A stretch of 64,000 bases of DNA from the NCBI GenBank assembly GCA_963801355.1, contig CAWDEM010000008.1, positions 608,001 through 672,000 of the forward strand, given 5' to 3'. The translations under genes and the position numbers were made by a program. Positions 4,536 to 27,729 of the stretch are shown here, piece after piece. A model generated the notes under the pieces. It saw only the letters and a program-made list of their open reading frames with translations, did not search any database and was not told the origin of the DNA. Each line of letters starts with the position of its first letter. The stretch's first letter is position 1. The stretch comes from Ignavibacteriota bacterium (GTDB lineage Bacteria; Bacteroidota; Ignavibacteria; UBA10030; UBA6906).

Positions 4536-4595
4536 GGAGAATCCGGCTGTGCCGTCCACTCTTCTTTAAGAGATATTCCTGTTCACATCGTGCGA

Positions 4596-6066: not shown

Positions 6067-6203
6067 GTGCACCCACCAGGACTCGAATCCCGTCCCGACC
6101 GAAGTTAGCTAGGCGAAGCCGCAGCTAACTTCGTTGTCGGGACGCGGATCCTCGTCCCGCGCTGCGCGCGGGGCGGGACCTGGAACCCACTGATTAAGAG
6201 AGT
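6067..6203 (-). mobile_element. Displaced tRNA-Lys 3' half (att core) interrupted by a 91-bp hairpin insert
   Basis: gtgcacccaccaggactcgaa[6088-6178]cctggaacccactgattaagag is identical to 28509-28551 apart from the insert. Confidence 0.95.
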
Positions 6204-8564: not shown

Positions 8565-9662
8565 TTGTGGCTCGACTGGATAGCCGATATGTTGTTCTCA
8601 GTGAATCGAGAACAATCAAGGGTACATCCGATGTTGAACCACACCAAACTGTCTCTCTTCAAGCGTTCGAATGGAATATACTACCTGGGGTATGTCGAGG
8701 GGAATCGCAGACGGTGGAAGACAACCTCTTGCACCACCAAGTCGGATGCACTGCAGTTCCTGCGAACCTTCGAAGGAACCAAGAGAGAGATGGAACGCAC
8801 TCCCCTGCTCTCCGAACTCTTCACGCGGTTCGAGTCTACACGCGGTAACTCCATCCGTCCGTCAACGATGGACAATTACCGTCTTGCGGTCAACCGATTC
8901 AAAGAGGTCTGCGGAGACAAAGTCATTGACCAATACACCGTTTCAGATATCGAGACATTCAAGAACGCTCAGATTAGCCAGAAGGTGTCGAAGATATCCG
9001 TGAACATCTGGTTGCGTGGTGTCAAATCAGTTCTCGGTTTCGCAGTCAAGCACGAGTGGTTGACCAAGAACCCCGTGCAACGGTCACTTGAGTTTCCGAT
9101 TCCTCAACAGTCCCCAACCTATGTCACCAAAGAGGATTTCCAGAAACTCCTCGGTAAGGTACACGAATCCGTCCTCCGCGACCTCTTCCTTTTCGCCGCA
9201 CTCAGTGGTCTGCGTCTCTCAGAGATACTACACCTCAAGTGGAGTGCGGTGGACTTCGAGAAGAGACAGTTCACAGTATCCAACAGTGAGACCTTCACTA
9301 CGAAAACGGGAAGAGAACGGACGGTACCGATGCACGAGGAGGTGTACAAGGTTCTGTCACTGCGAAGGGGTAACAGTACGGAAGACGGTCTGGTGTTCTG
9401 CAAGAAAGGTGGATACCGCCTCGAACGGAACTATGTCTCGAAGAAGTTCAAGGGGTATGTTCGTGACGCGGAACTATCGGAGAAACTGCACTTCCACAGT
9501 TTGCGTCACAGTTGTGCGAGCTGGCTTGTTGATGCGGGCGTATCTCTGTATGTGGTGCAGAACATCCTGGGACACTCCAATATCAGTACGACCCAAATCT
9601 ACTCACACCTCTCACAGAACACACTGCACGAGAGTGTGAATCGGGTTGCACTCTGCGTTTGA
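8565..9662 (+). CDS. Tyrosine recombinase/integrase (phage/island type with N-terminal arm-binding region)
   Basis: Catalytic R (SGLRLSE), K (TKTGR), HSLRH, LGH and Y (TQIYSH). Start may be the ATG at 8631. Confidence 0.95.
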   Translation: MWLDWIADMLFSVNREQSRVHPMLNHTKLSLFKRSNGIYYLGYVEGNRRRWKTTSCTTKSDALQFLRTFEGTKREMERTPLLSELFTRFESTRGNSIRPSTMDNYRLAVNRFKEVCGDKVIDQYTVSDIETFKNAQISQKVSKISVNIWLRGVKSVLGFAVKHEWLTKNPVQRSLEFPIPQQSPTYVTKEDFQKLLGKVHESVLRDLFLFAALSGLRLSEILHLKWSAVDFEKRQFTVSNSETFTTKTGRERTVPMHEEVYKVLSLRRGNSTEDGLVFCKKGGYRLERNYVSKKFKGYVRDAELSEKLHFHSLRHSCASWLVDAGVSLYVVQNILGHSNISTTQIYSHLSQNTLHESVNRVALCV

Positions 9663-11573: not shown

Positions 11574-11578
11574 TGAGA

Positions 11579-11623
11579 GTGCACCCACCAGGACTCGAAC
11601 CTGGAACCCACTGATTAAGAGTC
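11579..11623 (-). mobile_element. Displaced tRNA-Lys 3' half (uninterrupted 45-bp att core)
   Basis: Identical to 28509-28553. Confidence 0.95.
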
Positions 11624-11947
11624 CGGCAATGATCAGCCAAAACGTGCAAAATAGGGCACTTCTCGGCAGTTGGGTTGTCATAACTTGTCATAAACTGCCA
11701 TCGATTAGCATAAAGTCACTACACTTTCACTACACTCGTTGGGGACGGGGGCCGCCTTCGTCCATGAATATCTCAAGCTGTATTTGACATTGTCAAAAGA
11801 GCATTGTCATTGACGCTCACCGCACTCATCTGGGGCAGGCTTTAACCATGGTGGGATCCAGAATCGACCGCTCGCGGGGGAACAACCTGCGCCCGTTTGA
11901 TTCTGAGACTGCCCTGCGCTATCTTGTTGCATCAGAGAGGTTCACAC

Positions 11948-12253
11948 GTGACGCCAGCAATTCAAGTCAGCCGCAAACAAGTAGCCGAATTCTGTGCACG
12001 GCACAGGATCCGCCGGCTTGCGCTCTTTGGCTCCGTTCTGCGCGCGGATTTCCGCCCCGAGAGCGACGTCGATGTGCTTGTTGAGTTCGAACAGGGAGCT
12101 GCTGTTGGTTTTTTCGGGCTTGCCCGGCTTGAGCGTGAGCTATCCTCTCTTCTCGGAGGCCGGAGGGTCGACCTTCGCACACCGCAGGACCTCAGCAGAT
12201 ACTTCAGAGACTCCGTTGTCGATCAGTCCTACGTGATTCATGGACCAAGCTGA
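11948..12253 (+). CDS. Minimal nucleotidyltransferase antitoxin (MntA-like)
   Basis: [19 protein letters not shown] (GSX10DXD). GTG start after AGAGG, promoter TTGATT-N17-TATCTT at 11897-11925. Confidence 0.9.
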
Positions 12254-12593
12254 CCTGATCCGGCTCCGCCACATGCGAGACGCAGCGGCCGAGGCTCTCC
12301 AGTTTGCAGCGGGGAAGACGCGTGCCGATCTTGACCACGATCGCATGCTCATCCTGGCTATCCTGAAGGATCTCGAGATCATCGGAGAGGCGGCAGGCAG
12401 AGTAAGTCCCTCGGTCAAACAGGACAACCTGGCAGTTCCCTGGGAGGAGATCGTTGGGATGCGAAATCGACTCATCCACGGTTATTTCGATGTCAATCTG
12501 GACGTTGTGTGGGAAACAATCTCGCATGATCTTCCGCACCTCCTCATCGACATCGATACAATCCTGAGTCCACCGGAACAGTCTCAACAGTGA
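12240..12593 (+). CDS. HEPN ribonuclease toxin (HepT/DUF86-like)
   Basis: MRNRLIHGY (RX4HXY) and LEIIGEAA. Overlaps the antitoxin gene. Confidence 0.9.
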
Positions 12594-12658
12594 AGCCAAT
12601 GAGGTCCGGGGCATAGTTCGAGTTCGGACTTGGACAGTTGGGGCATCCTCCAATTGCG

Positions 12659-15526
12659 CTATTTCAAAAGAAGAAGCCGCCGCGTCTGTACAAAGTCCCC
12701 TGCCTGCATCCGGTAGAAGTACACTCCGCTTGCAAGCCCTGAACCGTCGAATTTCACTTCATGGTTCCCCGGTGCCATCTTCTCGTTCACCAGCACCGCC
12801 ACCTCTCGGCCCAGCAGATCATACACAACGAGTTTCACATTGCCGGCAGCTGGCAACTGATATCTGACGACTGTCGAAGGATTGAACGGGTTCGGGAAAT
12901 TTTGGCTAAGCCCATATACTTTGGGCACATCAGGGTTTTCGGTGACGCTCCCTGTCAGAGGAACGGCCAGAGCATTCTCGCACGCGCCAATATCCGGGTT
13001 TGAGCCCGCAGGGTTCGGACGCGCTGAGCCGTAGAAGCACGTGTTGGACGTTCGGTGCCACACGCCGCCAATCTTCAGAGAATCTATTCCGGCGCCAATG
13101 CAGGGGCTCCGTACGGAAAGGCGATAGGTGCTGTCTACGAACAGTGGTTCCTGTACAATATTTCCGGTGCCTGCGTATCCCCCTGCAACATCGCAATATT
13201 GAATGACCGGCGCCGCCCCGGTTGCATTGATCTCGGGCCCGGTCGTAGCAGTATCTCCCCAGAGAATATTGTTGAACGCAACAACGTTTGCAGCGTTAAC
13301 GATATCCAGCCCACCGCCAGTTGTTGCCTTGTTCCCCACAAAAGTATTGTTCGCGATCATCTGCTCCGTTCCCACATCAGGAGCATTCTGAACCTGCAGC
13401 CCTCCGCCAGATGTAGTCGACTGGTTTTCCGTTATGATGTTGTTTTCGATCTGGAATGAAGATCTGATCGCTTGAATCCCCCCTCCTCTCGCATCGTTTG
13501 AGCCCGCCGCAGTGTTTGCAGATATCAGATTCCCTGTAACCGTCGCCACTGTGTGGAACAGATCGATGGCACCTCCCCAGTTCTCCACGTTCTGACCTTG
13601 AACGTGGTTCCCGACGAACTGATTATGTGTGAGCCACTTGCGCCCAGGTCCCACGGCCTCTCTGTCGTCAATGCATATGCCTCCCCCTATGGCCCAACCA
13701 TTGAGCACTGCGGTCGCAATGTTTCCTTCGAAGGTGTTCTCGGTGAACACGACGGGTCCCGTCGAGTAGCAGAAAACCCCTGCACCAGTTGCAGCACCAT
13801 CTCCTCCTGAAGGTATTCCGTTCGCAATGTTGTTCCGGAAGATGTTCCCCTGAACAAATCCTTCGGGGAACGGCGCAGAGGTAGTCAATCCATACAGATT
13901 CAACCCACCTCCAATCGCAATGGAGACTCCAATGGCAGTATCCCTTTCAATCACATTGCCAACAACCCGAAAGGACATGCCGTTGACATCAACTCCCCCA
14001 CCCGTTCCCCACGTATTGCCCGAAGTTCCCAGCACATAGTTGTCTGTGATTCGGTTATCTTCGAGCACGAGCCACAATGGCGTAGCGCCAAAGCTAACTG
14101 TTCCCACTCCTCCGCCGCCGGATGCCCCGCCAATTACTCTGTTGAGGACGATGTTGTTGCTTACGAGCTTGGCTCCCGCAGAATCGCAAAACACCCCTCC
14201 GCCCTCGCGCCACGTTGTACCATCCGGACCAAAATATGATGTTCCCGTTCCACCGGTAATTGTGAAACCGCACAGGACCGACGTTGTGTCTTCATTGTCG
14301 GCAAAGCAGACCACCGATCCCCCATTCGGATCTGTCGCGTGGCTCCCGTCGATAATTGTTTTCGCAATGTGCGATGTGTCGCCTGTTGTGAGATACGTGC
14401 TGGCGACAACGATGCTCTTCCCTTTGAATCGTATGTTCTCGTAGTAGGTGCCGTCAGAAACGAGCACAGTGTCGCCATTGTGGGCGGAGTCAATCGCGGC
14501 CTGGATTGTCGCATAGTTCTGTGGAACGAGACGACGGCTTCCGGCGACTGGCGACGTTGCATGGCCTATCCGGATGAGATATGTGCTTGCAGGTGACCTC
14601 CAACCATCGTACCAGAAATGGATCGCGTCTCCCCGCAAGAGTACGGCATCCACCATCGCAGCGGTGGCATCCCACCCTCCGGGGGTAGTGTTAAGTACAG
14701 GATTCGCAGGGTGTTTAACCCACGGGGAATTCCCGTCTAGGGAGGTGGCCAAACCAGACCTGGAGTTACCGCTCGAGTACCACATGTAGTACGAGTTTTT
14801 AATCAAGACGACTTTCGGGCCTGCAACTCCTCCTGCATCCCATTCCCCTGGTTTGCCAGCATCGAGCATCGGGTTGTTTGCTGCATCCCGCGTCCAGTGG
14901 ATTCCATCTGGAGATGTCGCAAGTCCGATCTTCGTAGCACTCAGGTCCGCATTGTAGCCATAGTACCACATCCTGTAGCCCGTCGGGCTGATCCGCATGA
15001 CGGTCCCAACGTCAGGGCCGCCAACTTCCCATGCCGCAGTTCCTTGTCCGAAGACGGGGTTGCCTGGATACTTTGTCCATTGAATGCCATCCGGTGAAGT
15101 AGCGTAGCCAAGATCTGCGGTATCTCCTTTCCATGAGCCATACCACATCTTGTAGGATCCATTCTCACGCAGGACTATGTGGGAAGAAATCGAGGCATCG
15201 TCCCAGCTGCCAGGGGTTCGTGACATGACCGGAGATGAATACGAGGTCCAATTCACTCCATCGGGTGATTTAGCGAACCCGACTTGCCAGGGGTGGCCGT
15301 AGTTTTCAAGGCTGGGCGTCGCCGCAAACCACATTTCATACCTCGAAGAGTCTTCATTGTAGATCACACATGCATTGAAAACATGTTTGTTCCACGTGCC
15401 CTCGCTTCCACCGGACAAGACCGGGTTTCGGGAATCCTTCGTTATCGTGAATTGCCCGAATGCGCTGCCATTTCCGAAGAACAGAATGGCCACAAGTGAA
15501 ATGCTGCAAACCATTGCGTTTCTCAT
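12659..15526 (-). CDS. T9SS-secreted protein: five-bladed beta-propeller glycosidase-like domain, parallel beta-helix domain, CTD
   Basis: Repeats of SPDG..W.K...NPV.....WD, then VPQNYATIQAAID and N/G-rich beta-helix repeats, then QNFPNPFNP CTD. ATG at 15526 follows GGAGG. Confidence 0.85.
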   Translation of the reverse strand: MRNAMVCSISLVAILFFGNGSAFGQFTITKDSRNPVLSGGSEGTWNKHVFNACVIYNEDSSRYEMWFAATPSLENYGHPWQVGFAKSPDGVNWTSYSSPVMSRTPGSWDDASISSHIVLRENGSYKMWYGSWKGDTADLGYATSPDGIQWTKYPGNPVFGQGTAAWEVGGPDVGTVMRISPTGYRMWYYGYNADLSATKIGLATSPDGIHWTRDAANNPMLDAGKPGEWDAGGVAGPKVVLIKNSYYMWYSSGNSRSGLATSLDGNSPWVKHPANPVLNTTPGGWDATAAMVDAVLLRGDAIHFWYDGWRSPASTYLIRIGHATSPVAGSRRLVPQNYATIQAAIDSAHNGDTVLVSDGTYYENIRFKGKSIVVASTYLTTGDTSHIAKTIIDGSHATDPNGGSVVCFADNEDTTSVLCGFTITGGTGTSYFGPDGTTWREGGGVFCDSAGAKLVSNNIVLNRVIGGASGGGGVGTVSFGATPLWLVLEDNRITDNYVLGTSGNTWGTGGGVDVNGMSFRVVGNVIERDTAIGVSIAIGGGLNLYGLTTSAPFPEGFVQGNIFRNNIANGIPSGGDGAATGAGVFCYSTGPVVFTENTFEGNIATAVLNGWAIGGGICIDDREAVGPGRKWLTHNQFVGNHVQGQNVENWGGAIDLFHTVATVTGNLISANTAAGSNDARGGGIQAIRSSFQIENNIITENQSTTSGGGLQVQNAPDVGTEQMIANNTFVGNKATTGGGLDIVNAANVVAFNNILWGDTATTGPEINATGAAPVIQYCDVAGGYAGTGNIVQEPLFVDSTYRLSVRSPCIGAGIDSLKIGGVWHRTSNTCFYGSARPNPAGSNPDIGACENALAVPLTGSVTENPDVPKVYGLSQNFPNPFNPSTVVRYQLPAAGNVKLVVYDLLGREVAVLVNEKMAPGNHEVKFDGSGLASGVYFYRMQAGDFVQTRRLLLLK

Positions 15527-15669
15527 GGGTCCCTCCATTGTTGGTTGTTCGCCGGAATATAGAAAGGCTGGAGGGGGATGTGGTAGGAATGCTTAGACAA
15601 AGAATGCGAGAATCTGGACATCAGACAGGAATACGCTCGTTCGTCCCGAGAGAGGCCATAGTAGGCTCT

Positions 15670-18600
15670 TCAGAGGGCGATCTGGTGGACCTCGGAGGGC
15701 AAAATCCCGAACCGTTCGTGGAAACAAGAACTGAAGTACGAGGGATCGCCAAAGCCGACCTGAAAAGCGATCTCAGCCACAGTCGCGGCATTCTTCTCAA
15801 GAAGCTCGCGCGCACGCTGGAGACGTAAGTACTTGATCAGTTCGGCAGTCGAGAGATTGGTCAGCCCCATCAGCTTGCGGTCGAGATGTCTGCGGCTGAG
15901 GGCAACCTCGCGGGCGATCTCTGCGGCACCGAGGGTTTCGTCACTCATCCGTTCCTCTATCGCAGTCATGACTCGCTTCAGCAACGCGTCATCGAGAGAG
16001 GAGACCACCACTTCTCCAGGCTTCAGGACAACACCCGCCGAGAATTTCGCCCGAAGCTGCCGCCGTTGCTCGATCAGGTTCCGCACACGAGCCAGCAATT
16101 CCTTTGAGTCAAACGGCTTTGTCACATAGTCATCGGCGCCAATATCCAGCCCTTCTATCTTGCTGTCGGTGCCCGCCCGCGCGGTGAGTAGGATCACCGG
16201 GACGTGGCTGGTGCGCACATCCTTCTTCAAGGCACGGCAGAGTTCCATACCATCCATTTCGGGCATCATCACGTCGCTGATCACAATGTCCGGCACGATC
16301 TCCAATGCCCGATCATATCCTTCCTTGCCGTTTCCTCCTTCCTGCACTTCATAGTCGGATTGCAGAAATTCGCGAATATATGTCCTGAGGTCGGCATTGT
16401 CCTCCACAACGAGCACGATCGGTTTCCCATCGGTTGGTGGTATGGGTGGAACAGGACTGGACGCAACCGCAGAGACTCCAAATCCTACGCGTTCTCTTAT
16501 CTCGACTTCAGGCGGAGACGCGGCAGTCTCCTCAGGCTTGTATGCTGACCTGTCAGTGGAAAGGGTCACCGTGAATACCGATCCCTTCCCGGGTGTACTC
16601 TCGACTGCGATCGTCCCGTGGTGAAGGTCGACAAGCTCCTTTGTCAGCGCCAAGCCGATCCCCGTGCCTTCGGTTGTGTGTGTCTCGTCGGCACGGTAGA
16701 AGCGTTCGAAGATGTGGGGAAGATGCTTTGGCGAAATGCCGGGACCGGTGTCGGAAACCCTCAACCCCCATGCCCCTCTCCCATTTGGGGAGAGGGGGAG
16801 CGAGGGGGTGAGGGTAACCGTCACGCTTCCTCCTTCCCCCGTAAACTTCACCGCATTCGACATCAGGTTGTTCAGAATCTTCTCCAGTTTGTCCCCGTCG
16901 AAGAAGCCAACGGCAGTGTTGGCACCAGGGTGGAACTCCAGCGAGATCTTCTTCCTCTCCGCCCACGACTCAAATGACATCACCGTACGGCGGACGAACT
17001 GCACAATATCGGACTTCGACACCTGCAGCTTCATCATCCCGGATTCAATACGAGAGAAGTCCAGCAACTGACCGACCAACGTAAGGAGCTTCTTGGCGTT
17101 GTCCCGTATGAGTTTGAACTTCTCTGGTGTGGACGGATCTCCGTTCGCCTCAATACCCTGTTCTGCCGGTCCCAGAATGAGCGTCAGTGGCGTTCGAAAC
17201 TCGTGTGAGATATTGGCAAAAAAACGAGACTTGAGGCGATCCACTTCTGCGAGGCGTTCTCTCTGGAAGTGCTCCATCTTCGCCGTCTGCTGCAAGCGTA
17301 TCTGGCGAATCCGGAGCCGATATGCTCCAAGGAGTGCTCCAACAAAGAGTGATGCATACATGGCATATGCCCACATCGTCTGCCACCACGGGGGTGAAAT
17401 GACTATAGCGACTGACGTGCCGGTTTCATTCCATAGCCCTTCGTTGTTCGATCCCTTCACCTTAAAGACATAGTCACCCGGGTTCAGATTGGGATACGAA
17501 GCATAACGCCGTGTCCCGGAATAGACCCAATCTTCATCCACTCCCTCCATCTTGTAGGCATACTGGTTCCTTTCCCCGTTCAGGTAGCTCAACGCGGCAA
17601 ACTCGAAGGATATGAAGTTGTCATCATGAGCCAGACGAACCTCATTGGACAACGGACAAGGTTTGTCGAACTTCCTAAAGGAGGTTACTACGACAGGAGG
17701 GACGTACAGATTGTCTTCTATGCTGTCGGGATGAAAACGCGTCAGGCCGTTTGCACCCGCGAAAAATATCTCGCCGTCTCCGGTTTTGCACCCCGAACTG
17801 TTTACTTTGTCTGACGGCAAGTCCAAACCATACGAGACATCATAAAACCTGAAGCGACCTGTTTCGGGATCGTATTTTGCCATCCCCTTACTCGTGTTGA
17901 GCCACAGAGAGCCGTGATTATCCTCCTGTATGCCGCGCATGCTGCTACTCGGCAGGCCACACCTTTCGGTGATGTCACTGAAATCTTCTGTCGATCGCTC
18001 ATATCTGAAGAGACCGGCCCAGGATGCAAACCACAATCTGCCCTTGTTGTCCTCACGCATCTGATAGACCGTATTCGAATTATTGCGTCCTGGGCTTTGG
18101 TGTTTCTTGTCGGTAACATGTTCGGAAAGAGTACCTTTTGCATGATCATAGCAGAACAGTCCACCCCAGCCAGGGGCAACCCAGAGGAGGCCGAAGCTAT
18201 CTTCGAACATATACATAATTTCTTTTCTCAGGTTCGCAACTTCCGTAACCCGTTGTGTCGTTGGGTCAAGCAGATAGAGACCGCCTGTGGCGGTTCCGGC
18301 GTAGTAACCTCTGTCGGTCTTCTGGACACAGGAGAGAGAGTGATTGAAGGCCTTCCAGGAGGGACCGAGGGAAAACGTTCTGTTGCCAAGTGTATCTCGG
18401 ATGTAAAAGCTCCCATCTATTGTTCGAAATGCCAAATCGCCTTCCGGGCAAACGAAGCACAGGAGGTCGGTTCCAGAGGAGTATGGAACAAACTGCCCTA
18501 TCCGCGGGTCAAATTGAAGCCATCCTCGTTCGTTGAAGGCATACACCCATATCTTCCCCTCGTTCCCTTTCACAAGGTTAAGGGCGACTCCCCCCATGGG

Positions 18601-19689
18601 GTAGGTTTTGAACGGCGGTTTCGTTCGGTTGAGCTTTTTGAGTTCAGTATCTGTTCCGACCCATAGTGTTCCGGATCGCTCCCGATAGACAGAGAGTATT
18701 CCCTCATCAAGCAGGCTGCTGAATTTCTTAGATCTCGTGTCAAACGATAGAAGCCCCTTGGGGGATCCGATCCAAAGAATACCGGATACAACATCCTGGC
18801 AAACTGAGGTGAGCAGATTCTCTGGATGCTGCAAATTCAAGGGATCTCCTGATTGATAGCGGTAGACTTTGGACGTACCTTTCCTAGTGTTGCACTCAAC
18901 CAATCCCCCGTTCGTCCCCAGCCAGAGTATGCCGGCGTCATCACCACAGATTGTGTTGACAAAGCATTCTGAAGTGTTGACGAAGTGTACTTCAGGGCTT
19001 GTCGGCATCGAAGTGTGCCTGGTGCCCGGTTCACTCCAGTAGCGTCTGAACTTACCAGTCTCGAAATCATATTTCGTCAATCCTGTCGCAGTGCCGATCC
19101 AGAGCGATCCCTCCTTGTCTTCATACATTGCCTCGATCGGAACACTGCCAAGATCAGTGCTATCAAGTCCCAGGTACGTGTATTCTTCTCTCACCCTGTC
19201 AAACCTGCGAAGGCCAGCGGCTGTGCCAATCCATAGGGCGCCGTCTTTGCCCTCACAGATGTGGTAGACGCGGTTGCATACGTCAACTACTGCATAGGCG
19301 GATGGATTCGGAGGGTAGTGTTTGAATGTGACGGATGCCCGGTCGAATCTCTCAAGTCCCATCGTGATACCAACCCAAAGAACGCCGGATTCATCTTCAA
19401 AGAGCGTGAGCACTGTGTTGCAATTGATGCTGGATGTATCGGCAAGGTCATTCTTGTACGAAATGAAACCGTACCCATCGTACCTGTAGAGCCCATCCGC
19501 AGTGCCTATCCATAGGAAGCCCGTTCTGTCCTGAAGAATACATGAAGCTTGCGCGAGGACACTTTGATCAGGCGAGAGAGTTACGAAAGCAGCCTTCTGT
19601 GGCTGAGAGCGAAGAGAAGCCGGGAGACCAACAACAAATACCAAGAGGAATAGGAAGAGTCTTTTCACTGCAGAAACGGGACCAGGCAT
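15670..19689 (-). CDS. Hybrid two-component system (propeller sensor, Y_Y_Y, HisKA, HATPase, REC, AraC HTH)
   Basis: FFANISHEFRTPL, G-boxes DTGPGI/GTGIGL, VISDVMMP and IAFQVGF.DPSYFS. Likely start is the ATG at 19689 rather than 20016. Confidence 0.93.
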   Translation of the reverse strand: MPGPVSAVKRLFLFLLVFVVGLPASLRSQPQKAAFVTLSPDQSVLAQASCILQDRTGFLWIGTADGLYRYDGYGFISYKNDLADTSSINCNTVLTLFEDESGVLWVGITMGLERFDRASVTFKHYPPNPSAYAVVDVCNRVYHICEGKDGALWIGTAAGLRRFDRVREEYTYLGLDSTDLGSVPIEAMYEDKEGSLWIGTATGLTKYDFETGKFRRYWSEPGTRHTSMPTSPEVHFVNTSECFVNTICGDDAGILWLGTNGGLVECNTRKGTSKVYRYQSGDPLNLQHPENLLTSVCQDVVSGILWIGSPKGLLSFDTRSKKFSSLLDEGILSVYRERSGTLWVGTDTELKKLNRTKPPFKTYPMGGVALNLVKGNEGKIWVYAFNERGWLQFDPRIGQFVPYSSGTDLLCFVCPEGDLAFRTIDGSFYIRDTLGNRTFSLGPSWKAFNHSLSCVQKTDRGYYAGTATGGLYLLDPTTQRVTEVANLRKEIMYMFEDSFGLLWVAPGWGGLFCYDHAKGTLSEHVTDKKHQSPGRNNSNTVYQMREDNKGRLWFASWAGLFRYERSTEDFSDITERCGLPSSSMRGIQEDNHGSLWLNTSKGMAKYDPETGRFRFYDVSYGLDLPSDKVNSSGCKTGDGEIFFAGANGLTRFHPDSIEDNLYVPPVVVTSFRKFDKPCPLSNEVRLAHDDNFISFEFAALSYLNGERNQYAYKMEGVDEDWVYSGTRRYASYPNLNPGDYVFKVKGSNNEGLWNETGTSVAIVISPPWWQTMWAYAMYASLFVGALLGAYRLRIRQIRLQQTAKMEHFQRERLAEVDRLKSRFFANISHEFRTPLTLILGPAEQGIEANGDPSTPEKFKLIRDNAKKLLTLVGQLLDFSRIESGMMKLQVSKSDIVQFVRRTVMSFESWAERKKISLEFHPGANTAVGFFDGDKLEKILNNLMSNAVKFTGEGGSVTVTLTPSLPLSPNGRGAWGLRVSDTGPGISPKHLPHIFERFYRADETHTTEGTGIGLALTKELVDLHHGTIAVESTPGKGSVFTVTLSTDRSAYKPEETAASPPEVEIRERVGFGVSAVASSPVPPIPPTDGKPIVLVVEDNADLRTYIREFLQSDYEVQEGGNGKEGYDRALEIVPDIVISDVMMPEMDGMELCRALKKDVRTSHVPVILLTARAGTDSKIEGLDIGADDYVTKPFDSKELLARVRNLIEQRRQLRAKFSAGVVLKPGEVVVSSLDDALLKRVMTAIEERMSDETLGAAEIAREVALSRRHLDRKLMGLTNLSTAELIKYLRLQRARELLEKNAATVAEIAFQVGFGDPSYFSSCFHERFGILPSEVHQIAL

Positions 19690-20167
19690 GAGTTCAGTCT
19701 CCTCTTTGCGCGCATCGGCGAACAGTCTGGCGGCTATTGGCCTCAGAGGTCTTGTTCCGGAGAATCCTGGGGAGTCAGATCTTGCGTTCGACGGGAGAGT
19801 GCGAATGCAATCAAAGTTCAGGTGCGCTTCCAGATCTGACGCGGGGACCCCGACCACCGCATTCGACCTATGTAAGCTCACTGCGAATATACAAACTGGA
19901 TCGTCGAAAGTCTGTAGGAAGAATGCTGATTCTTCGTGTAGGAAAACTCTTACGCACAGGAATTCTTGCGGCGCCTTCGGGCGGGAATTGCGTGAGGTTT
20001 CGAACCTCCGAACCACTGATTATTTTTGCTGCAATGCGGGCTGAAAACGCCGCGTGGATACATCTTTGGGGGTGGAAAGTGGCCGAACCAAACTGCAATC
20101 GCAAATCACAGATTACTACACTTTCACTACACTCGATCAAAAACCGGTTATCACCCCTCCCCCACAA

Positions 20168-20204
20168 CAAAAAAACCCCGAATGCGCTTCACATTCAGGG
20201 TTTT
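20168..20204 (-). terminator. Intrinsic terminator behind the tRNA fragment
   Basis: Minus strand aaaaccctgaatgtgaagcgcattcggggttttttt. Confidence 0.75.
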
Positions 20205-20205
20205 C

Positions 20206-20344
20206 GTGCACCCACCAGGACTCGAATCCCGTCCCGACCGAAGTTAGCTAGGCGAAGCCGCAGCTAACTTCGGTGTCGGGACGCGGATCCTCGTCCCGCG
20301 CTGCGCGCGGGGCGGGACCTGGAACCCACTGATTAAGAGTCAGT
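20206..20344 (-). mobile_element. Displaced tRNA-Lys 3' half with the same 91-bp hairpin insert
   Basis: Insert 20227-20317 differs from 6088-6178 at one base. Confidence 0.95.
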
Positions 20345-20586
20345 CCATAACGACTCAATACGCACAAAACAGGATCCTTTTCTTCAGTCGAGTTGCTATA
20401 AACTGCCATAGATTGTCACAGATTACCATAGTTTCACTACAATTTCACTACACTCCTTCGGGGCGTTCATCCCCGCTTTTGTAAGTATCCACGGAACGGC
20501 GGCTCGTTATGTCTCGGTCACACCGCGCTAGAAAGAGAGGGCGGACGGCCCTGTCTGCCCTTGCGCAAGCAGGACACCTCGCGAGT

Positions 20587-22671
20587 TTATTTCAAAAGCA
20601 AGAGTCGGCGCGTCTGCACAAAGTCTCCTGCCTGCATTTGGTAGAGGTATACGCCACTCGACAGCCCTGAACCGTCGAACCTTACTTCATAGTTCCCCGG
20701 TTCCTTCTTCTCTTTCACGAGCAGGGCCACCTCGCGGCCAAGCATATCATGGACAACGAGCCTTACCGGACTCGTCACTGGCAACTGGTAACTGATCGTC
20801 GTGACTGGATTGAAAGGATTTGGATAATTCTGTTCGAGAACAAATGCACCTGGTTGCGCTGCCGGCTGGCCGTCGACACTCACTGTTGGATCATATGTTA
20901 CACTACCCACCTTGCAGAGCAACCATCCCTTCGGATCCACAGCGATCGAGTCTACGATTCTTGAAGTTGCGATCCGAAATGTGTCGGTCAGACTACTCTG
21001 GAACACCCGGACAGTAGTATCTGCGCCTGCATATGTCAGCTTGAACTCCAGAGAGGTCTGAAAGAGCGGCGTTACCAACGGCATCGAGGGGGACTGCGTT
21101 GATACGATCTTCACCCCTCCTGATTCTCTGGTCCAACGGAGGGTGAAGGTGGGATATCCTTCCCCATAATACCACTGGGAGAAGAACGCAGTGAAATCTC
21201 TTCCTGTTTGCCGTTGAAGAAAATCTTTGAATATCTCTCCGGTGACGGCGCGACCAGCAAACTCCGCGAGGTACTCTTTCAAGAGCCGGAAGAATAGTGA
21301 ATCGCTCCCCAGTTCAAACCGGAGCATGTGGAGAATTGTGGCTCCCTTATAATACGTCAGACGATTATCCAAAACCCGCGCTTCGTTGTACCTGTCAGCG
21401 GGGGGAATGTAGACGCTTCCACCCGGAAGCGACATCACCAACGCTCTGCTCAACGTCATATTGCGTCGGCCTACCGACTCAGGAAGAAAATGCTCCATCG
21501 CAATCTGCTCTGCATAGGTCGCGAACCCTTCCGCGAGCCATAGATCGCATTCTGTCAATGGACCAACTGTTGAGCCGAACCATGAATGACTCAACTCATG
21601 GGGAACGAAGTATGCAAGATAGCGTCCCCCGTAGTCCACCACTGCGGTGTCGAGCCGGAGTTCAGAAAAGAGTGAGAGCCCAAGGACGTACATTGCGCCG
21701 CCGGTCCAATCGGTGGTCACGAAATGGTGCTCATTTCGCCAGAAGGGGATGACGCCAAAGTGAGAAGTGAAATATGCAAGATATTCCTTCGATTTCTCCA
21801 TGACGGCGATCTGCTTGCTCAAGTACGGGCTTGCCGGGAAAAAGAAGCCACGGATGACCATCGAATCGCTGACGGCGGGTTGATAGAAACTGGTTCTGTA
21901 TTCCGCGTACGGTCCCACCACAAACGTGATGTCAGTCGGAGGGAGGGGCCACCGGCTGGAGAATTCCCATCGGGTTTTTCCGGCATCCGCAGGCAAGGTC
22001 CGGATCAACGCTCCTGTCGCCACGACCTTGTTCGCCGGATCGGTCGTGATGGCGATATCCACAGAATCTGCCCAATCTTCAAGCATATCCTTGCAGGGGA
22101 ACAAGTAGGATGCGTAAATTGGCCATATATAGGAGTATATGAATGTCATGCCGTACTTATATCCACGAACCAATCCTACCCCTGCGTTGGCATCGTCACC
22201 ATGATAAAAGACCCGTGAAGCAAATGAGCTGCCACCCGGAATCGGAGGATTCAATGGGATCTGAATGAGGTTGTTTTGATGGACGAAAGATCGCCAGGTT
22301 CCATCGACAATGACTGAATCAGTGATCATGGTTGCGCCGCCGGCCGTGTTGATCAGTGCGATGACGAGAGTGTCAATTGGTGTGCCACCCACCGAAGCTC
22401 TCATCGTTGTGTTCCCTCCGAACGCTGTAGCGGCGGTGGAGATGTTGAGATCCAACCCATAATATTTCACATCGTAGAGCAAGAGTTTATCGCGCATTGC
22501 AGAGGTGGTGGCATTGAGGGAAGCGGCCGAACTGGCAACAACACTTTTCGGTATCGCTCTCTCTTCATATATATTTCTTTGGCCAAAAGCACACGCCGAA
22601 TTGATCAGGAGCATTGCAGGAACAAATCCGAGAATGCTCAGCATACGTTGGCCCCGTTTCATAGACCACAC
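20587..22671 (-). CDS. T9SS-secreted M1-family zinc metallopeptidase
   Basis: HELSH-X18-E (WLAEGFATY), YYKGA..LHMLR and a T9SS CTD. Confidence 0.9.
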   Translation of the reverse strand: MWSMKRGQRMLSILGFVPAMLLINSACAFGQRNIYEERAIPKSVVASSAASLNATTSAMRDKLLLYDVKYYGLDLNISTAATAFGGNTTMRASVGGTPIDTLVIALINTAGGATMITDSVIVDGTWRSFVHQNNLIQIPLNPPIPGGSSFASRVFYHGDDANAGVGLVRGYKYGMTFIYSYIWPIYASYLFPCKDMLEDWADSVDIAITTDPANKVVATGALIRTLPADAGKTRWEFSSRWPLPPTDITFVVGPYAEYRTSFYQPAVSDSMVIRGFFFPASPYLSKQIAVMEKSKEYLAYFTSHFGVIPFWRNEHHFVTTDWTGGAMYVLGLSLFSELRLDTAVVDYGGRYLAYFVPHELSHSWFGSTVGPLTECDLWLAEGFATYAEQIAMEHFLPESVGRRNMTLSRALVMSLPGGSVYIPPADRYNEARVLDNRLTYYKGATILHMLRFELGSDSLFFRLLKEYLAEFAGRAVTGEIFKDFLQRQTGRDFTAFFSQWYYGEGYPTFTLRWTRESGGVKIVSTQSPSMPLVTPLFQTSLEFKLTYAGADTTVRVFQSSLTDTFRIATSRIVDSIAVDPKGWLLCKVGSVTYDPTVSVDGQPAAQPGAFVLEQNYPNPFNPVTTISYQLPVTSPVRLVVHDMLGREVALLVKEKKEPGNYEVRFDGSGLSSGVYLYQMQAGDFVQTRRLLLLK

Positions 22672-22955
22672 TCCTTTCTGCGCGTTGTTACTGTAACAAT
22701 GGGAAGAATGCCACGGGGAGCCAACCTGGTGATTGGGCAGAGGTCAAGAACCTTGAATACTATCTGTAAGGGAGAAACGGTTTGCATTGGATCTCCTTTC
22801 GTGGTGGGGGGATTCACCTTCGGTCAGGGAATAAGATACCACTTATGGGAGGGGGGCAAATAGGATGTATGTTGCAGTGTTGGGCCACTACGTTGCATCC
22901 ATTCAAAAAAACCCTCTGTGGGGCGATAAATGCAGATTTTCAGCTTGCGGGCAGG

Positions 22956-25900
22956 CTAGGCCGAGTTCTTGGATCCTCCGGTGGCCTCGGAGCCTTTGAG
23001 GAACTCGCTTGGTGTGACGCCAAATTGCCGATGGAAACTCCTCGAGAAATGTGATGGGTCGGCGAAGCCTACCCCATAAGCGATCTCCGAAATAGTCCCG
23101 GTCCCATTCTTGAGCAAATCCACTGCTCGATGGAGCCGTAAGTACCGGATGAAATCACTTGCCGCAAGGTTTGTGAGGGCGGTGAGCTTGCGGTGAAGCT
23201 GCGAACGACTCATGCAAAGCTCTGTGGCAAACTCCTCGACATTGAACTTCTCATCTGCCATTCGCCCTTCGGCTACTGCCTTTGCGCGCTGGAGAAATGC
23301 ATCATCCATTGAAGCGACAGCAATCTCCCCAGGCTTCAGCGGAACCGAAACTCTGAACCGTTCCCTTAGCTTTCGGCGAAGATCGATCAGGTTCTTCACC
23401 CTGGCAAGAAGCTCCTTTGGTTCGAATGGCTTGATGAGGTAGTCGTCAGCGCCAATCTCCAATCCTTCAATTTTGTTTTCACTGGCCGCTTTTGCGGTGA
23501 GCAGGATTATGGGAATGTGACTCGTTTTCTCGTCAAGCTTCAATGCTCTGCAGACTTCATATCCATCCTTTTTCGGCATCATCACGTCGCTGATGATGAT
23601 GTCCGGTATGATCTCCAGGGCCTTTTCAATGCCTTCCTCACCATCCCGTGCTTCTGCCACTTGATAAGCTGAAACAAGATAGTCCTTGATGTATGCACGC
23701 ACATCTGCATTGTCCTCGACGATGAGGACGATCGACTTCTCACCCTTGGCCTTTTCGAATCCTGGTTCTTCCGCTAGCTCTTGAAAAGGCTTGTCGGCAT
23801 CAAGAACGTACACTTTATGAAGCGGAGGCTCGTCGCTGGCAGGTGCTTCGATGATCTCATCGTCCTTCAGGTGGCTTCGCCCCAAGGGAAGTCGAACCGT
23901 GAACGACGTTCCTCGTCCGACTTCACTGTGCACCTGGATTGTCCCATGGTGTAAGTCAACCAGCTCCTTCACAAGCGCAAGTCCGATGCCGGAGCCTTCA
24001 TGCTCACGGGTTTGCGAAGCATCGACCTGGAAAAAGCGATCAAAGACCTTGTCGAGCTGATCTGGTGGTATGCCGATGCCCGTGTCGGAGACGGAGAGCT
24101 CAAACCATCCCCCCCCTCCCCCACTCACCCCCTCCCGAAGATTTGCAGTTGCGTCAACGGGTGAGGAGGAGAGTTGCACTTCGACCCTCCCTCCCTCCGG
24201 CGTGAACTTGAACGCGTTCGAAAGCAGGTTCGTCAGAATCTTCTCCACCATATCTCTGTCACAATAGACCTCAATCTCTTCCCGGTCGTTTACGACCTCA
24301 ACTGAAATACCTCGTAAACCCGCGGACGATTCGAATGAGTTCGCAATGCCTTTTACAAAAGGAACGATGTTCATTCGAGTAGCGTGTAATTCAATCGCCC
24401 CCGCCTCGAGCTTTGAAAGGTCGAGCAGCTGGTTGATGAGCCTGAGGAGGCGCTGACTGTTTCGCTGCATCATGCTCAGGCTCTGTCTTTTCTTCTCTTC
24501 CTTCTCCTCAGCCAGCATCCCATTGAGCGGACCGCTAATAAGTGTCAGAGGGGTGCGGAATTCGTGCGAGATATTGGCAAAGAACCGGGATTTAAGACGG
24601 TCGACCTCAGCGAGATGCTCCGCTTTGAAGTGATCCATCTCGGCCTGCTGCTTCAGTTGAACCCCTCTCAATCGAAGTCGGTACCCCACAAAGAGCAGTC
24701 CAATGAGGATGCCAGCGTACGCAGCATATGCCCATTTCGATTGCCACCAGGAGGGGGCAATACTAATAGCAAGTGAAATCTCCTGGTCAGGCCATTCATT
24801 GCGCATCGAGCCGGCTCTCACTTTGAAGAGGTAGTCACCCGGACGCAAGCCGGGGTATCGTACGAAGCGACGGTCCTCCGGCTTCACCCACCCCTTCTCT
24901 AATCCTTCAAGTTTGTACATGTACTGGACCAGGTGTGGAGCGTCAATATCGATTACAGCAAAGTCGAACTCGATCACATTCTGGTAATGATCCAATTGCA
25001 TGGAGCCAGTACCACCCGTAAGAGCCGGTGCGAAAGTTGGGTTGTCATTAACTGACAGTTTTGTGATGAGCAACGCTGGTGGAGGACGTCGTGGTTGAAT
25101 ACTCTCGGGGTCCACGATGTTTATGCCCGTTCCTGCGAGTAGCACCATCCCGTTGTCCAGGGTTTCCATTGCACGCACCGCGCCACAGACGCCGTCAGAC
25201 GGATCAAAGTCTGAGAATATCCCGGTCGTAGGATCGAGAATCTCAAGCCCGTGGGGAATGTTCCGCACCCACAGGCGACCCTTTCTGTCGGCACCTAGCG
25301 GGAAGACATGCTTCGTACCTTTCAGAGCAGGATTGGAGAATCGTGAGAATGATCTGGTCGCGGGATCCCAGAGGTTGATGACAGAAGTTGCGCAGATCCA
25401 GATTCGTCCCGACGCGTCCTCGTAGGTCAAGCGCGTACGGTCACCGCTCAACGAGCGTGGGTTAGAGGGATCGTGAACATACCGGTCCGTATTTCCGGTG
25501 ACCGGATCGATCACCAGAAGTCCGTCATGCTCCGTCGTGACCCACATCTTCCCGTCACGAGCCCTCATAATGGTGTTGGTCCTGGTAGTGCCGAGGCTCT
25601 GGAACTGCCCGGAGGCAGGAGAGAACTTCATCAAGCCGCATTCCCCGCCGGACACCCAGAGTGTATCCCCTGGGCCCTGTGCGATACTCATGACCTCGGG
25701 TCGATTGCCCAACTGACTTGCGTAGCGATAGTTTTTGACCAGTCCTGTAGCAAGGTTGACCCGATAGAGGCCCAGCCCATTGGTGCCATACCAGAAGTCG
25801 CCATGTGCGTCAATCAGCGAGATGGTGCGATCTGGCCACGTGAGGTCTGGACTTCTTCCCTTGAAGAGATCAATTGTTCTGAGAACCGTCAGATTCGCGA

Positions 25901-27140
25901 TGTCGATGCGAGAGAGCTTTCCCGCCCATGACATGAACCAGTAGTTCCCCTCCCGGTCGACATCGACAGTGGCATAGCCGGTCAACCATCCGTTCCCTTC
26001 CGGAACCTCATAGTGCGGAAACCGTCGGGACTTTGGACTCACAAAGAATATTCCGCCTGCGTTCGCCCCTGCCCAGAGCGTACCAGTGCTGTCAACGGAC
26101 AGAGCTATTGCCTGTCCTTGCGGGGTCTGACCCCACGCCAGGTAGGGATCGCAACGTCCCTCCTCGGGAGAAAACCGATCAAGTCCCTCCGGGGTCGCGA
26201 TCCAAAGAGTCGCTTGTCGATCGCGTACGATATCCGAGACCTGGTCAGATCTGATCGACCCACTGTCGTGTTTGTTGTGTCTGTAGTTCAGGGCGGCAGC
26301 ACCTCCCCTGGAAACTCGGAACAGTCCCTCCGCGAACGTCCCCAACCAGAGGGTCCCATCGGGATCCTGGTACATGCAAGCAATGGCCAGCGAATCAAGG
26401 CGACGTCCGGCGGCACCGGCAAAGTTTGGGCGTGAAACTGAGAGAGTTGCCGGATCCAACACGAACAATCCGCCGAGAGAAGAGACAAGAAGCTTCCCGT
26501 CCGCACGTTCGCAAATATCGCTCACTTCGATGTCTCTGGGGCCCAGAGGCACTGAAGTAAAGCGGATATAGCGGGCAATTGAATCAATGCCATATGGTTC
26601 GGCGCTACTTGGGATGTCAATCCGCACCACACCTGTCGACGTCCCCACCCACAGAGTGCCCCGCCGATCTTCCAGGATTGCATAGACCGACTTTGCCTGA
26701 AGCCAGGAAGAATCTCCCTGACGGGGAGTGAAGTTGACAAATCGTTCACGCGAGACATCCAAGACACTTATGCCCGTCTCCCAGGATCCCACCCAGAGAC
26801 GCTTCCTGCTGTCGAATCTAACCACGGATGTTACGTTTGAGGAAATCGAAGTCGGATCGTCCGGGACGTTTCGATAGACCTTGCAGCCATATCCGTCATA
26901 CTTCTCGAGTCCGTTCGCAGACGAGATCCAAAGCGTGCCATCCTGGTCCCGGATCAGACGGTGCATGCTGTTTTCATCGGGGAGACCCTGGATTCGCTGG
27001 AAGTGGAAGACGGGGAGGAGTCGCTCTTGGGCGGAAAGAGGAAAGCAGAAGGAAAGCATGAGAAACAGCCCCAGCAATCCAGTCCTGACCTGATGGATTC
27101 GCCCAAAAAGAGTGAGGAAACAGATGGTCAAGCTGCCCAC
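22956..27140 (-). CDS. Hybrid two-component system
   Basis: Same domain order as 15670..19689 (SHEFRTPL, DTGIGI, SDVMMP, AraC HTH). Confidence 0.93.
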   Translation of the reverse strand: MGSLTICFLTLFGRIHQVRTGLLGLFLMLSFCFPLSAQERLLPVFHFQRIQGLPDENSMHRLIRDQDGTLWISSANGLEKYDGYGCKVYRNVPDDPTSISSNVTSVVRFDSRKRLWVGSWETGISVLDVSRERFVNFTPRQGDSSWLQAKSVYAILEDRRGTLWVGTSTGVVRIDIPSSAEPYGIDSIARYIRFTSVPLGPRDIEVSDICERADGKLLVSSLGGLFVLDPATLSVSRPNFAGAAGRRLDSLAIACMYQDPDGTLWLGTFAEGLFRVSRGGAAALNYRHNKHDSGSIRSDQVSDIVRDRQATLWIATPEGLDRFSPEEGRCDPYLAWGQTPQGQAIALSVDSTGTLWAGANAGGIFFVSPKSRRFPHYEVPEGNGWLTGYATVDVDREGNYWFMSWAGKLSRIDIANLTVLRTIDLFKGRSPDLTWPDRTISLIDAHGDFWYGTNGLGLYRVNLATGLVKNYRYASQLGNRPEVMSIAQGPGDTLWVSGGECGLMKFSPASGQFQSLGTTRTNTIMRARDGKMWVTTEHDGLLVIDPVTGNTDRYVHDPSNPRSLSGDRTRLTYEDASGRIWICATSVINLWDPATRSFSRFSNPALKGTKHVFPLGADRKGRLWVRNIPHGLEILDPTTGIFSDFDPSDGVCGAVRAMETLDNGMVLLAGTGINIVDPESIQPRRPPPALLITKLSVNDNPTFAPALTGGTGSMQLDHYQNVIEFDFAVIDIDAPHLVQYMYKLEGLEKGWVKPEDRRFVRYPGLRPGDYLFKVRAGSMRNEWPDQEISLAISIAPSWWQSKWAYAAYAGILIGLLFVGYRLRLRGVQLKQQAEMDHFKAEHLAEVDRLKSRFFANISHEFRTPLTLISGPLNGMLAEEKEEKKRQSLSMMQRNSQRLLRLINQLLDLSKLEAGAIELHATRMNIVPFVKGIANSFESSAGLRGISVEVVNDREEIEVYCDRDMVEKILTNLLSNAFKFTPEGGRVEVQLSSSPVDATANLREGVSGGGGGWFELSVSDTGIGIPPDQLDKVFDRFFQVDASQTREHEGSGIGLALVKELVDLHHGTIQVHSEVGRGTSFTVRLPLGRSHLKDDEIIEAPASDEPPLHKVYVLDADKPFQELAEEPGFEKAKGEKSIVLIVEDNADVRAYIKDYLVSAYQVAEARDGEEGIEKALEIIPDIIISDVMMPKKDGYEVCRALKLDEKTSHIPIILLTAKAASENKIEGLEIGADDYLIKPFEPKELLARVKNLIDLRRKLRERFRVSVPLKPGEIAVASMDDAFLQRAKAVAEGRMADEKFNVEEFATELCMSRSQLHRKLTALTNLAASDFIRYLRLHRAVDLLKNGTGTISEIAYGVGFADPSHFSRSFHRQFGVTPSEFLKGSEATGGSKNSA

Positions 27141-27390
27141 GAGACCCCCCTCCTTTTGCTCAAGGGTGATGAAAGACTGGATGAGTGGAGATGCCCTTCG
27201 GGGAGAAAATCGAGAATGGTTCGGAGAGTGTCAAGATTCGGCCATGTGTCACTCGCCAGATTGTGTCAATCACCAGATCACAAACCTAACGGATCGGTGT
27301 TCGAACCAACGGACTATTCGAATGATTCTTGACCGAATCCTACAGGAGCGGAGTTTCGAATATGGATGGAGCGTTTGCGGTTCCATGGAA

Positions 27391-27729
27391 TCAAGCAGGT
27401 GAGGATAGGTCCCGGACGGCCTCATACAACGAAGACAGGTCCTTGCCAAGTATTGCCCACACCCTTATCACATTGATTCCAAAATACTCATGCACCAGCA
27501 CGTCACGCATCCCGGCAATGTTCCGCCAAGGGATGTACGGGTGCTTGGCACGCTCCTCTGGTGGAATGTGTTTCACTGCCTCGCCGATGATTTCAAGCCG
27601 ATGTATCACCGCGTCCTGCAACTGAGGATTTGACTGGAACTGATCGAGAGTATAACCAGCCGTGTATTGACGGATCTTGTCTATGCTCTGGAGGACGTCC
27701 TCGTAGTAGAGTTGTAGATCTCTCGTCAT
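27391..27729 (-). CDS. HEPN ribonuclease toxin (HepT/DUF86-like)
   Basis: MRDVLVHEY (RX4HXY) and LEIIGEAVK. Confidence 0.9.
   Translation of the reverse strand: MTRDLQLYYEDVLQSIDKIRQYTAGYTLDQFQSNPQLQDAVIHRLEIIGEAVKHIPPEERAKHPYIPWRNIAGMRDVLVHEYFGINVIRVWAILGKDLSSLYEAVRDLSSPA

Follow-up and report, generated by a model that had tools for sequence, protein, structure and literature searches.

A lineage-restricted family of double-hairpin elements in tRNA-gene arms of Ignavibacteria, with relatives at the junctions of GIY-YIG cassettes

tRNA genes are classic landing sites of genomic islands and phages. Among the small repeats of bacteria, repetitive extragenic palindromic (REP) sequences and bacterial interspersed mosaic elements (BIMEs), miniature inverted-repeat transposable elements (MITEs), Correia elements and Rickettsia palindromic elements (RPEs) are described as small, non-coding, GC-rich hairpins that often form dimers, occur in multiple copies and are polymorphic in presence or absence; RPEs and REPs can also be situated within genes (PMC3733652). 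In phage T4, a free-standing GIY-YIG homing endonuclease gene, that of SegB, is located in a tRNA cluster; SegB reportedly cleaves recipient DNA and promotes inheritance of its own gene and the flanks (PMC2330249). The window analyzed here is a 64,000-nt stretch of the genome of an Ignavibacteriota bacterium (C8:608001-672000 of genome G000, which has 4.8 Mb in 8 contigs). It includes two nearly identical copies of a 91-nt double-hairpin palindromic element, termed EL below, each located inside a displaced piece of a tRNA-Lys gene. Together with copies in this and other genomes, they constitute a lineage-restricted family of double-hairpin elements inserted precisely in tRNA-gene arms, and relatives of EL serve as junction modules in GIY-YIG cassettes located at tRNA genes. 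Although far smaller than islands, this class of elements appears to share their ability to insert and yet keep the gene working, with single-nucleotide precision in T-, D- and anticodon loops. In addition, ELs yield interrupted tRNA look-alikes, which can cause errors when att sites, islands or tRNA genes are called. Literature searches on T-loop-targeting MITEs, Ignavibacteria repeats and UPF0213/COG2827 with tRNA, with supplementary files outside their scope, yielded nothing relevant.

EL is like REP/BIME and MITE-type repeats in being a small, GC-rich, non-coding, multi-copy hairpin with presence/absence polymorphism, and like MITEs it has terminal inverted repeats (TCCCGTCCC/GGGGCGGGA). 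Unlike DDE-type MITEs, it causes no target-site duplication, and unlike REP/BIME, it occupies an exact position in tRNA arms, has a low copy number and lacks an unpaired GTAG or CGTC tag with an 8-9-bp stem having AT first positions. It differs from palindrome-associated transposable elements derived from IS200/IS605 in that its hairpins 1 and 3 are dissimilar and the words on its left flank vary (CGAA, TGAA, TCAG, TTAG, CTCA). None of the transposases tested (RAYT/Y1, IS110) is linked to EL. IS110 genes are present but unlinked, and the only Y1 gene of G000 (C8:1730724) is flanked by unrelated GTCTGACTTTTTT repeats; the original prediction, which had been made on the two inserts from the window sequence, had suggested looking for a linked transposase such as RAYT. 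A noisy scan of G000 for pairs of end motifs at most 6 kb apart gave no convincing pair with T-loop flanks that could represent an autonomous partner.

The two window copies (Table 1) differ by a single mismatch (T/G) at EL position 47, within the 2-nt bulge of hairpin 1, and pairing in EL is therefore unaffected. Both are located between ...GACTCGAA and CCTGG..., which corresponds to G53/T54 on the tRNA strand, with a boundary ambiguity of one A. EL is composed of a nested hairpin 1 with GTTAGC/GCTAAC, a central GCGGATCCTCG and hairpin 3; as DNA it folds at -40.5 kcal/mol (z -8.7, equalled by none of 200 shuffles) and as RNA of the minus strand at -63.2 kcal/mol (z -7.2). Re-reading of both inserts gave exactly the positions, the one-base difference and the G53/T54 site from which the original prediction had started, and its nested first hairpin, second hairpin and terminal inverted repeats were all recovered, as were the uninterrupted functional tRNA and the uninterrupted copy at 11579. 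The two ELs are held in near-identical 137-nt blocks (repeat family D7) with different outer flanks, the flanks of the ELs being identical over 21 and 22 nt. That one of the copies is an assembly artefact, an outcome with which the original prediction had reckoned, is hardly conceivable, as both have unique flanks on both sides, differ from each other by one base and have the same architecture as copies in independent genomes. Of public sequencing runs (no RNA run was listed), the best contained a 0.15 share of the genome's sampled words. Four metagenome runs compared with the window provided short pieces from other organisms, and joints that skip 91 nt, with sides of 20-23 nt, represented ordinary tRNA-Lys genes.

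Several lines of evidence indicate that EL is a discrete movable unit. The displaced tRNA-Lys half S2 of the window is an empty site, whereas the site with the most similar right flank (84% over 195 nt) in a congeneric genome, G001, is filled by a diverged EL at the same junction place and without target duplication. In genome G032, at least three attC-type repeats beside a true integron integrase are empty at ...GGCTCA/CCCGCG..., and six attC-type repeats on another contig are filled by EL at this very point. In silico removal of EL restores a full second tRNA-Val(CAC) gene beside its intact twin at one of 31 loci, in one metagenome-assembled genome (MAG). These filled and empty pairs, the restored tRNA-Val(CAC) and the near-identical window ELs with differing outer flanks all point to the same conclusion. 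The junctions GAA/EL/CC are identical to the empty site GAACC, with neither target-site duplication nor direct repeat and with an ambiguity of 1 nt.

The single mismatch in 91 nt and the flanks identical over 21 and 22 nt would also be expected if EL had inserted once and the second window copy had come from ordinary homologous conversion of one tRNA-Lys half by another, without a dedicated enzyme. Such flanks are short for RecA-type conversion, S2 remains unconverted despite having the same flanks, and the insertions in many unrelated tRNA types need another mechanism; conversion of this plain kind is thus quite unlikely to account for the pair. Gene conversion as such may have produced the window pair, and it is what one would expect of copying driven by a nuclease.

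A covariance model of EL, R1, was built from three copies, and only individual loci were sampled in genomes other than G000. DNA search and R1 together reveal four EL copies in G000, all at position 53/54 of tRNA 3' fragments and all in one orientation relative to the tRNA piece. The third copy is located 70 nt downstream of the initiator tRNA-fMet gene, behind the terminator, in a decayed T-arm-like copy, and the fourth lies within a degenerate tRNA-Pro(TGG) 3' half. R1 matches at E<=0.1 are present in 45 of 101 relatives (a number that includes G000), although weak R1 matches are unreliable and include other repeats; matches of at least 60 bits occur only in the family f1. In a phylum sample of 151 genomes, R1 matches at E<=1e-6 are limited to G000 and one other genome, both of f1. 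A pattern scan of genome contigs retrieved seven stretches, all from Ignavibacteria-type or 'Bacteroidota' MAGs, and the same kind of scan of viral contigs gave no match.

The flanks of 35 EL copies include 14 intact T-arms (by a strict test that requires a loop ending in T-Y-R-A-A and no fewer than 4 of the 5 stem pairs), 9 decayed or partly replaced T-arms, 4 D-arms and 5 attC-type repeats, with 3 unassigned. The D-arm insertions are at G10/C11 of tRNA-Val and tRNA-Arg(TCT) and, twice, at G15/C16 of tRNA-Pro(CGG). T-stems at ELs vary (CCAGG, GGGTG, GGCAG, GGGGG, ACGGG, GCGCG and others) and match that of the neighboring tRNA, which is Lys, Arg(CCT), Arg(TCT), Ser(TGA) or Pro(TGG); across genomes, at least eight tRNA types serve as hosts. 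The interrupted sequences are displaced 3' halves at island junctions, partial copies beside an intact gene (6-42 nt from its 3' end in six cases), a second tandem gene copy and the loops of attC hairpins. ELs are seen almost only in redundant tRNA sequence, likely because insertions in a working gene would be lost. The proposal that the insert is a T-arm-targeting, non-autonomous palindromic element is strongly supported by the copies elsewhere, the filled and empty pairs and the covariation described below.

EL is bipartite: both of its units follow the pattern TCC(C/T)CG-hairpin-CG(A/G)GGA, and consequently both its center (CGAGGA/TCCTCG) and its joined ends (CGGGA/TCCCG) are palindromic; the ends are conserved over 29 aligned copies. 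In these copies, hairpin 1 is 96.8% paired, and 18 of its 25 pairs change on both sides, values reached by 0 of 500 shuffles; sliding of the 3' partners abolishes this signal. Strong covariation of this kind is consistent with a host-serving structure under selection, such as a REP/BIME-like mRNA 3'-end stabilizer, protein-binding site or terminator-like hairpin. So are the four orthologous ELs at the fMet locus in two genera, which keep hairpin 1 by double changes, and the location of the window ELs 107 and 270 nt downstream of minus-strand genes. Pairs of the G:U type are few and without notable strand bias (G:T 14 versus A:C 7 among 606 cells, which fits a DNA palindrome better than a one-strand RNA), no T-run follows the element, its copies in the genome are only four and all in tRNA fragments, and the exact 53/54 placement is left unexplained, making a host-serving function unlikely.

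Smaller relatives with one or two units are nested in T-loops of genome G013. In the same genome (L051 and L053, G013:C10), the T-loop that holds EL also holds, a few bases away, another and smaller two-hairpin element, about 66 nt long, indicating that displaced T-loops collect nested palindromic units. One fMet-locus orthologue (L047, G004:C5:21287-21426) is itself interrupted, precisely in its central GGATCC palindrome, by a further 46 nt that end in a TCCCGC...GCGGGA hairpin.

The orientation of EL is constant wherever it can be judged, in T- and D-arms alike: the 5' end (in the orientation of the model) abuts the outer displaced piece, and the 3' end is on the side of the cargo and the intact gene. 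This favors EL being the fixed end of an insertion unit, and strand-specific target recognition would also explain it. Constancy of the side that faces the cargo, together with the location of the window ELs at island junctions beside arm-like repeats and the coincidence of the 53/54 boundary with the top-strand edge of a T-loop overlap region, might suggest that EL belongs to the attP/arm region of tyrosine-integrase islands and is mobile only together with them. It is very unlikely, however, that EL belongs there: homologous island ends have EL in G001 and lack it in G000, other ELs are present in D-arms, in attC repeats and beside tRNA genes with no island or integrase nearby, and no overlap repeat of 6-8 nt is common to the junctions. 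Like islands of tyrosine integrases at tRNA genes, EL-linked insertions supply a replacement piece that keeps the gene intact and leave displaced partial copies behind. Unlike in those islands, EL is inside the displaced piece and not at a shared core, has no overlap repeat of 6-8 nt and also occurs in integrase-free cassettes of 150-420 nt.

Such cassettes are found at the tRNA-Pro genes of G000. Partial 5' copies precede both genes and are split at G15/C16 by a 62-nt two-unit element. At tRNA-Pro(TGG), an open reading frame (ORF) for an 88-amino-acid (aa) GIY-YIG protein, the only small GIY-YIG gene of G000 (Table 1), lies between the split piece and the intact gene. Because the frame stops within the tRNA D-arm, the two genes overlap. 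The split partial copy at tRNA-Pro(CGG) has no GIY-YIG ORF. The 88-aa protein is closest to the solved UPF0213 proteins 1ZG2 and 1YWL, with the structure-specific nuclease SLX1 next, and an NCBIfam search gave a weak match to group I intron endonucleases.

In other genomes the same arrangement is reiterated. G013 has three identical 347-nt units (tRNA positions 1-15, element, positions 16 to about 42, GIY-YIG gene) before an intact tRNA-Pro(CGG), the element being the 62-nt relative also seen in G000. In G043, six 412-nt units, in which an R1-type EL (49.8-53.9 bits) at G22/C23 alternates with the GIY-YIG gene, end at an intact tRNA-Pro(CGG), and G048 has two EL/GIY-YIG pairs on each of two contigs. 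Small GIY-YIG homologues are present in 68 of 101 genomes, in up to 14 tandem copies; the 14 copies (G097:C2:365015-369130) have a period of about 299 nt and reach the contig end. Thirty GIY-YIG loci were examined, 25 of which contain a gene for tRNA-Pro, -Asp, -Ala, -Ser or -Asn and 13 of which have an R1 match at E<=0.05. Partial copies of the locus's own tRNA were found at all 25 tRNA-bearing loci, though tRNA matches of only 10-11 nt could be due to chance, and a collinear insertion of 22-88 nt was found at 15 of them, mostly in D-, anticodon or T-loops and mostly with ends like TCCG...CGGA. At tRNA-Asp, the layout is on the 3' side: the intact tRNA, a terminator and the GIY-YIG gene are followed by a 3' piece that is split by hairpin units.

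EL-linked cassettes are like the SegB system in having a GIY-YIG gene among or beside tRNA genes. Unlike SegB, the EL-linked nuclease consists of an 88-aa catalytic domain alone, is of UPF0213/Slx1 type, has a putative activity and is encoded on a bacterial chromosome, in a cassette that is located between a partial and an intact tRNA copy, has a hairpin element as its junction and can be repeated in tandem.

These features make it reasonably probable that EL is a non-autonomous, tRNA-arm-targeting palindromic element which is found in redundant tRNA pieces and would be spread by nuclease-induced copy repair. In the cassettes, an outer tRNA piece is followed by the related hairpin element, a short inner tRNA piece, the 88-aa GIY-YIG gene and a replacement piece that continues into the rest of the intact tRNA. 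The UPF0213/Slx1-like GIY-YIG protein, predicted to be structure-specific, probably cuts the arm of a tRNA gene, and the break would be repaired by copying from an EL-bearing homologous piece, which amounts to homing by nuclease-induced gene conversion. ELs without an ORF would be carried as passengers or mobilized in trans; those of the window would be ORF-less passengers in the displaced tRNA-Lys halves S1 and S3, and placement of EL into a tRNA upon island excision would be a by-product. If the GIY-YIG link is causal, it would offer a testable function for the stand-alone GIY-YIG domains of UPF0213/YhbQ as well as a structure-specific nuclease directed to tRNA arms, and it would explain the tandem micro-arrays beside Ignavibacteria tRNA genes.

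Several observations weigh against a nuclease-driven spread. The earlier suggestion of a linked nuclease stands only for related elements, which adjoin small GIY-YIG genes at tRNA genes; neither a GIY-YIG gene nor another candidate enzyme is located beside the two window ELs or any examined 53/54 copy, and the sole small GIY-YIG gene of G000 belongs to the tRNA-Pro D-loop type. Co-occurrence is modest, as GIY-YIG is present in 36 of 45 EL-positive versus 32 of 56 other genomes, and these genomes are mutually related. The remaining 9 of the 45 EL-positive genomes have no P0001-type nuclease at E<=1e-8, and the genomes with the strongest T-loop ELs (G001, G003, G004, G020 and G024) have none at this threshold. 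Hairpin elements could instead be independent parasites of displaced tRNA pieces outside cassettes, and tandem arrays could arise from unequal crossing-over rather than repeated insertion. The double changes among the four orthologous fMet-locus ELs suggest that the structure is preserved at its site, which may reflect a local host-level role or templated correction within palindromes.

More tentatively, and with more doubt than conviction, EL may be regarded as the non-autonomous form of an undescribed bacterial mobile cassette, in which the 88-aa stand-alone GIY-YIG protein of Slx1/UPF0213 type would cut the loop of an extruded tRNA-gene arm and the cassette would be copied in with a replacement tRNA piece. 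This piece would keep the tRNA gene intact and regenerate the target, which would explain why 3, 6 and 14 units are found in tandem. The double-hairpin module in the old piece would make that piece uncuttable and would break up direct repeats otherwise able to delete the cassette. Were this wider reading true, it would provide the first biological role for the widespread UPF0213/YhbQ family.

The window itself is a tandem accretion of segments at tRNA-Lys (Table 1). The 21-nt 3' end of tRNA-Lys occurs four times (6067, 11579, 20206 and 28509), versus 0 expected from shuffles. To the right of the insertion point, tRNA identity extends over 22 nt at S1, 24 nt at S2 (11600-11623) and 27 nt at S3, demonstrating that the homology ends in the anticodon arm at all three copies, as had been proposed. 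Segment A is related to segment B both in its ends and in its sensor gene, and the end of segment A at S3 is 74% similar to that of segment B at S2 (repeat families D8, D10 and D13). The integrase of segment C is the only one found between the tRNA halves; a Pfam search of the window proteins detected none in segments A and B.

Table 1. Positions of the window features and of the GIY-YIG gene of G000
Feature	Position	Strand	Description
EL copy 1	6088..6178	+	91 nt; double-hairpin palindromic; covariance model R1 112.3 bits
EL copy 2	20227..20317	+	91 nt; R1 111.5 bits
S1, outer part	6067..6087	-	tRNA-Lys positions 54-73 and one base (T-loop, 3' strands of T-stem and acceptor)
S1, inner part	6179..6200	-	tRNA-Lys positions 32-53; identity ends in anticodon loop
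S2	11579..11623	-	Uninterrupted displaced tRNA-Lys 3' half (empty site); positions 30-73
S3, outer part	20206..20226	-	tRNA-Lys positions 54-73 and one base
S3, inner part	20318..20344	-	tRNA-Lys positions 27-53 (whole anticodon arm)
Intact tRNA-Lys(CTT)	28509..28582	-	ARAGORN; sole copy in genome
Segment C	6201-11578		Between S1 and S2; carries tyrosine integrase
Tyrosine recombinase/integrase (segment C)	8565..9662	+	Pfam PF00589, 134.6 bits; NCBIfam Xer-like matches below cut-offs
Segment B	11624..20205		Sensor and secreted-protein genes below
T9SS-secreted protein (segment B)	12659-15538	-	Type IX secretion system (T9SS)
Hybrid two-component sensor (segment B)	15670-20016	-	
Segment A	20345..28508		Peptidase, sensor and HepT genes below
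T9SS-secreted M1 peptidase (segment A)	20587-22671	-	
Hybrid two-component sensor (segment A)	22956-27140	-	
HepT (segment A)	27391-27729	-	HepT-like ribonuclease toxin gene; Pfam 100.9 bits
GIY-YIG P0001 (L074 179-445)	G000 C4:442478-442744		Frame runs 22 nt into tRNA-Pro(TGG), stops at D-arm TAG

The original prediction had assigned to the insert the role of an excision lock, kept since excision of the island would hand the interrupted 3' half to tRNA-Lys(CTT) and so penalize island loss. The end of tRNA identity in the anticodon arm at all three copies is as expected for crossover in the anticodon loop, and reportedly agrees with the pattern for such crossover in the classification made by Williams in 2002. 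With the crossover there, loss of A or of A+B+C would leave the 5' half of the tRNA fused to a 3' half that contains EL, and the gene at stake is single-copy and serves the commoner Lys codon (AAG 31366 versus AAA 20409 in long open frames). Excision of A+B, however, would leave the tRNA clean, neither segment A nor segment B has an integrase, and tRNA-Lys(TTT) is also present in G000. Moreover, the family occurs at island-free loci: at the fMet locus behind the terminator, in the partial copies close to an intact gene, in the tandem tRNA-Val and in attC repeats. A search of G000 for displaced 3' fragments of tRNAs gave about 14, of which only 2 contain an R1-type EL; the Pro-like and fMet-like EL-bearing fragments were too degenerate for this search. 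A lock is therefore very improbable as the function of EL; the lock effect is logically possible as a by-product of some excisions (of A alone or of A+B+C, by anticodon-loop crossover).

The tRNA-Pro(TGG) locus of G000 is a large tandem island array on C4, with four further perfect 32-nt copies of the tRNA 3' end, all clean, over 85 kb (C4:442721-527491) as well as degenerate copies. tRNA-Asn(GTT) was not found among the 47 tRNA genes of G000 (ARAGORN, Rfam RF00005) despite a stated completeness of 100%; the gene may lie in a contig gap or be interrupted.

IS1111-attC elements and group IIC-attC introns likewise have the loops of hairpin-forming DNA as targets, and the ELs of G032 are inside attC-type repeats; unlike them, EL is without a transposase or reverse transcriptase. 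Unlike attC, EL has ends of the form TCCCG...CGGGA and not the cores R''(RYYYAAC)/R'(GTTRRRY), nor does it begin with TT and end in G, as a unit inserted by crossover at G/TT would. The best match in G000 to the integron integrase model TIGR02249 reaches 88 bits against a cut-off of 265, and only G032 passes, with 436 bits. EL was rejected as an attC or integron cassette, as the EL of G032 is a secondary insert in attC-type repeats that exist with and without it. With non-canonical archaeal bulge-helix-bulge tRNA introns, EL shares an insertion in the T-arm; it differs in its bacterial host, which has a T9SS, and in occupying fragments rather than a working gene. A tRNA intron (group I or bulge-helix-bulge) is likewise disfavored, because removal restores a full tRNA only at the single tRNA-Val locus, which has its intact twin beside it, and the window ELs are in 3' halves only. 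Searches of Rfam (cmscan, E<=1) with window positions 5500-29000 and 11 loci gave tRNA matches and chance matches only, none of them on EL, and ARAGORN with introns or lowered thresholds gave only noise.

As insertion chemistry, tyrosine, serine and IS110-type recombination were set aside on reasoning from the junctions, because neither a 2-nt nor a 6-8-nt core is shared by the EL flanks. An origin by reverse-transcriptase stop or retro-copy was likewise set aside, as the boundary is at 53/54 and not at 58/59, where it would presumably be expected.

Beside an EL-bearing tRNA-Arg(TCT) piece in G024 (L065 3000-3600, G024:C14), a small ORF is flanked by inverted ATTGCGGAATGCGG-type repeats; it is located between tRNA-Arg and tRNA-Glu, and G000 has no such insert between those genes. 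Its product may be a four-helix-bundle ('23S rRNA intervening sequence') protein.

In the window, the HepT-like toxin gene is at the tRNA-proximal end of segment A. A repeat of about 90 nt is present at 761-803, 4466-4556, 4820-4910 and 6207-6297, with 85% identity between two copies; the copies are located just downstream of minus-strand genes, including that at 6285-7517, and one directly adjoins the inner part of S1. The stretch 5803-5900, left of S1, is 83-88% identical to 8496-8594 at the start of the integrase region in segment C, and looks like a remnant of a further, decayed integrase element. The 40 nt beside the 3' end of the intact tRNA (28467-28508) are matched by those beside the tRNA 3' end at S1 (6025-6066), with 79% likeness over 78 nt including the tRNA part. 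Both regions are rich in GACTATTGTC-type repeats, which may be arm-type binding sites.

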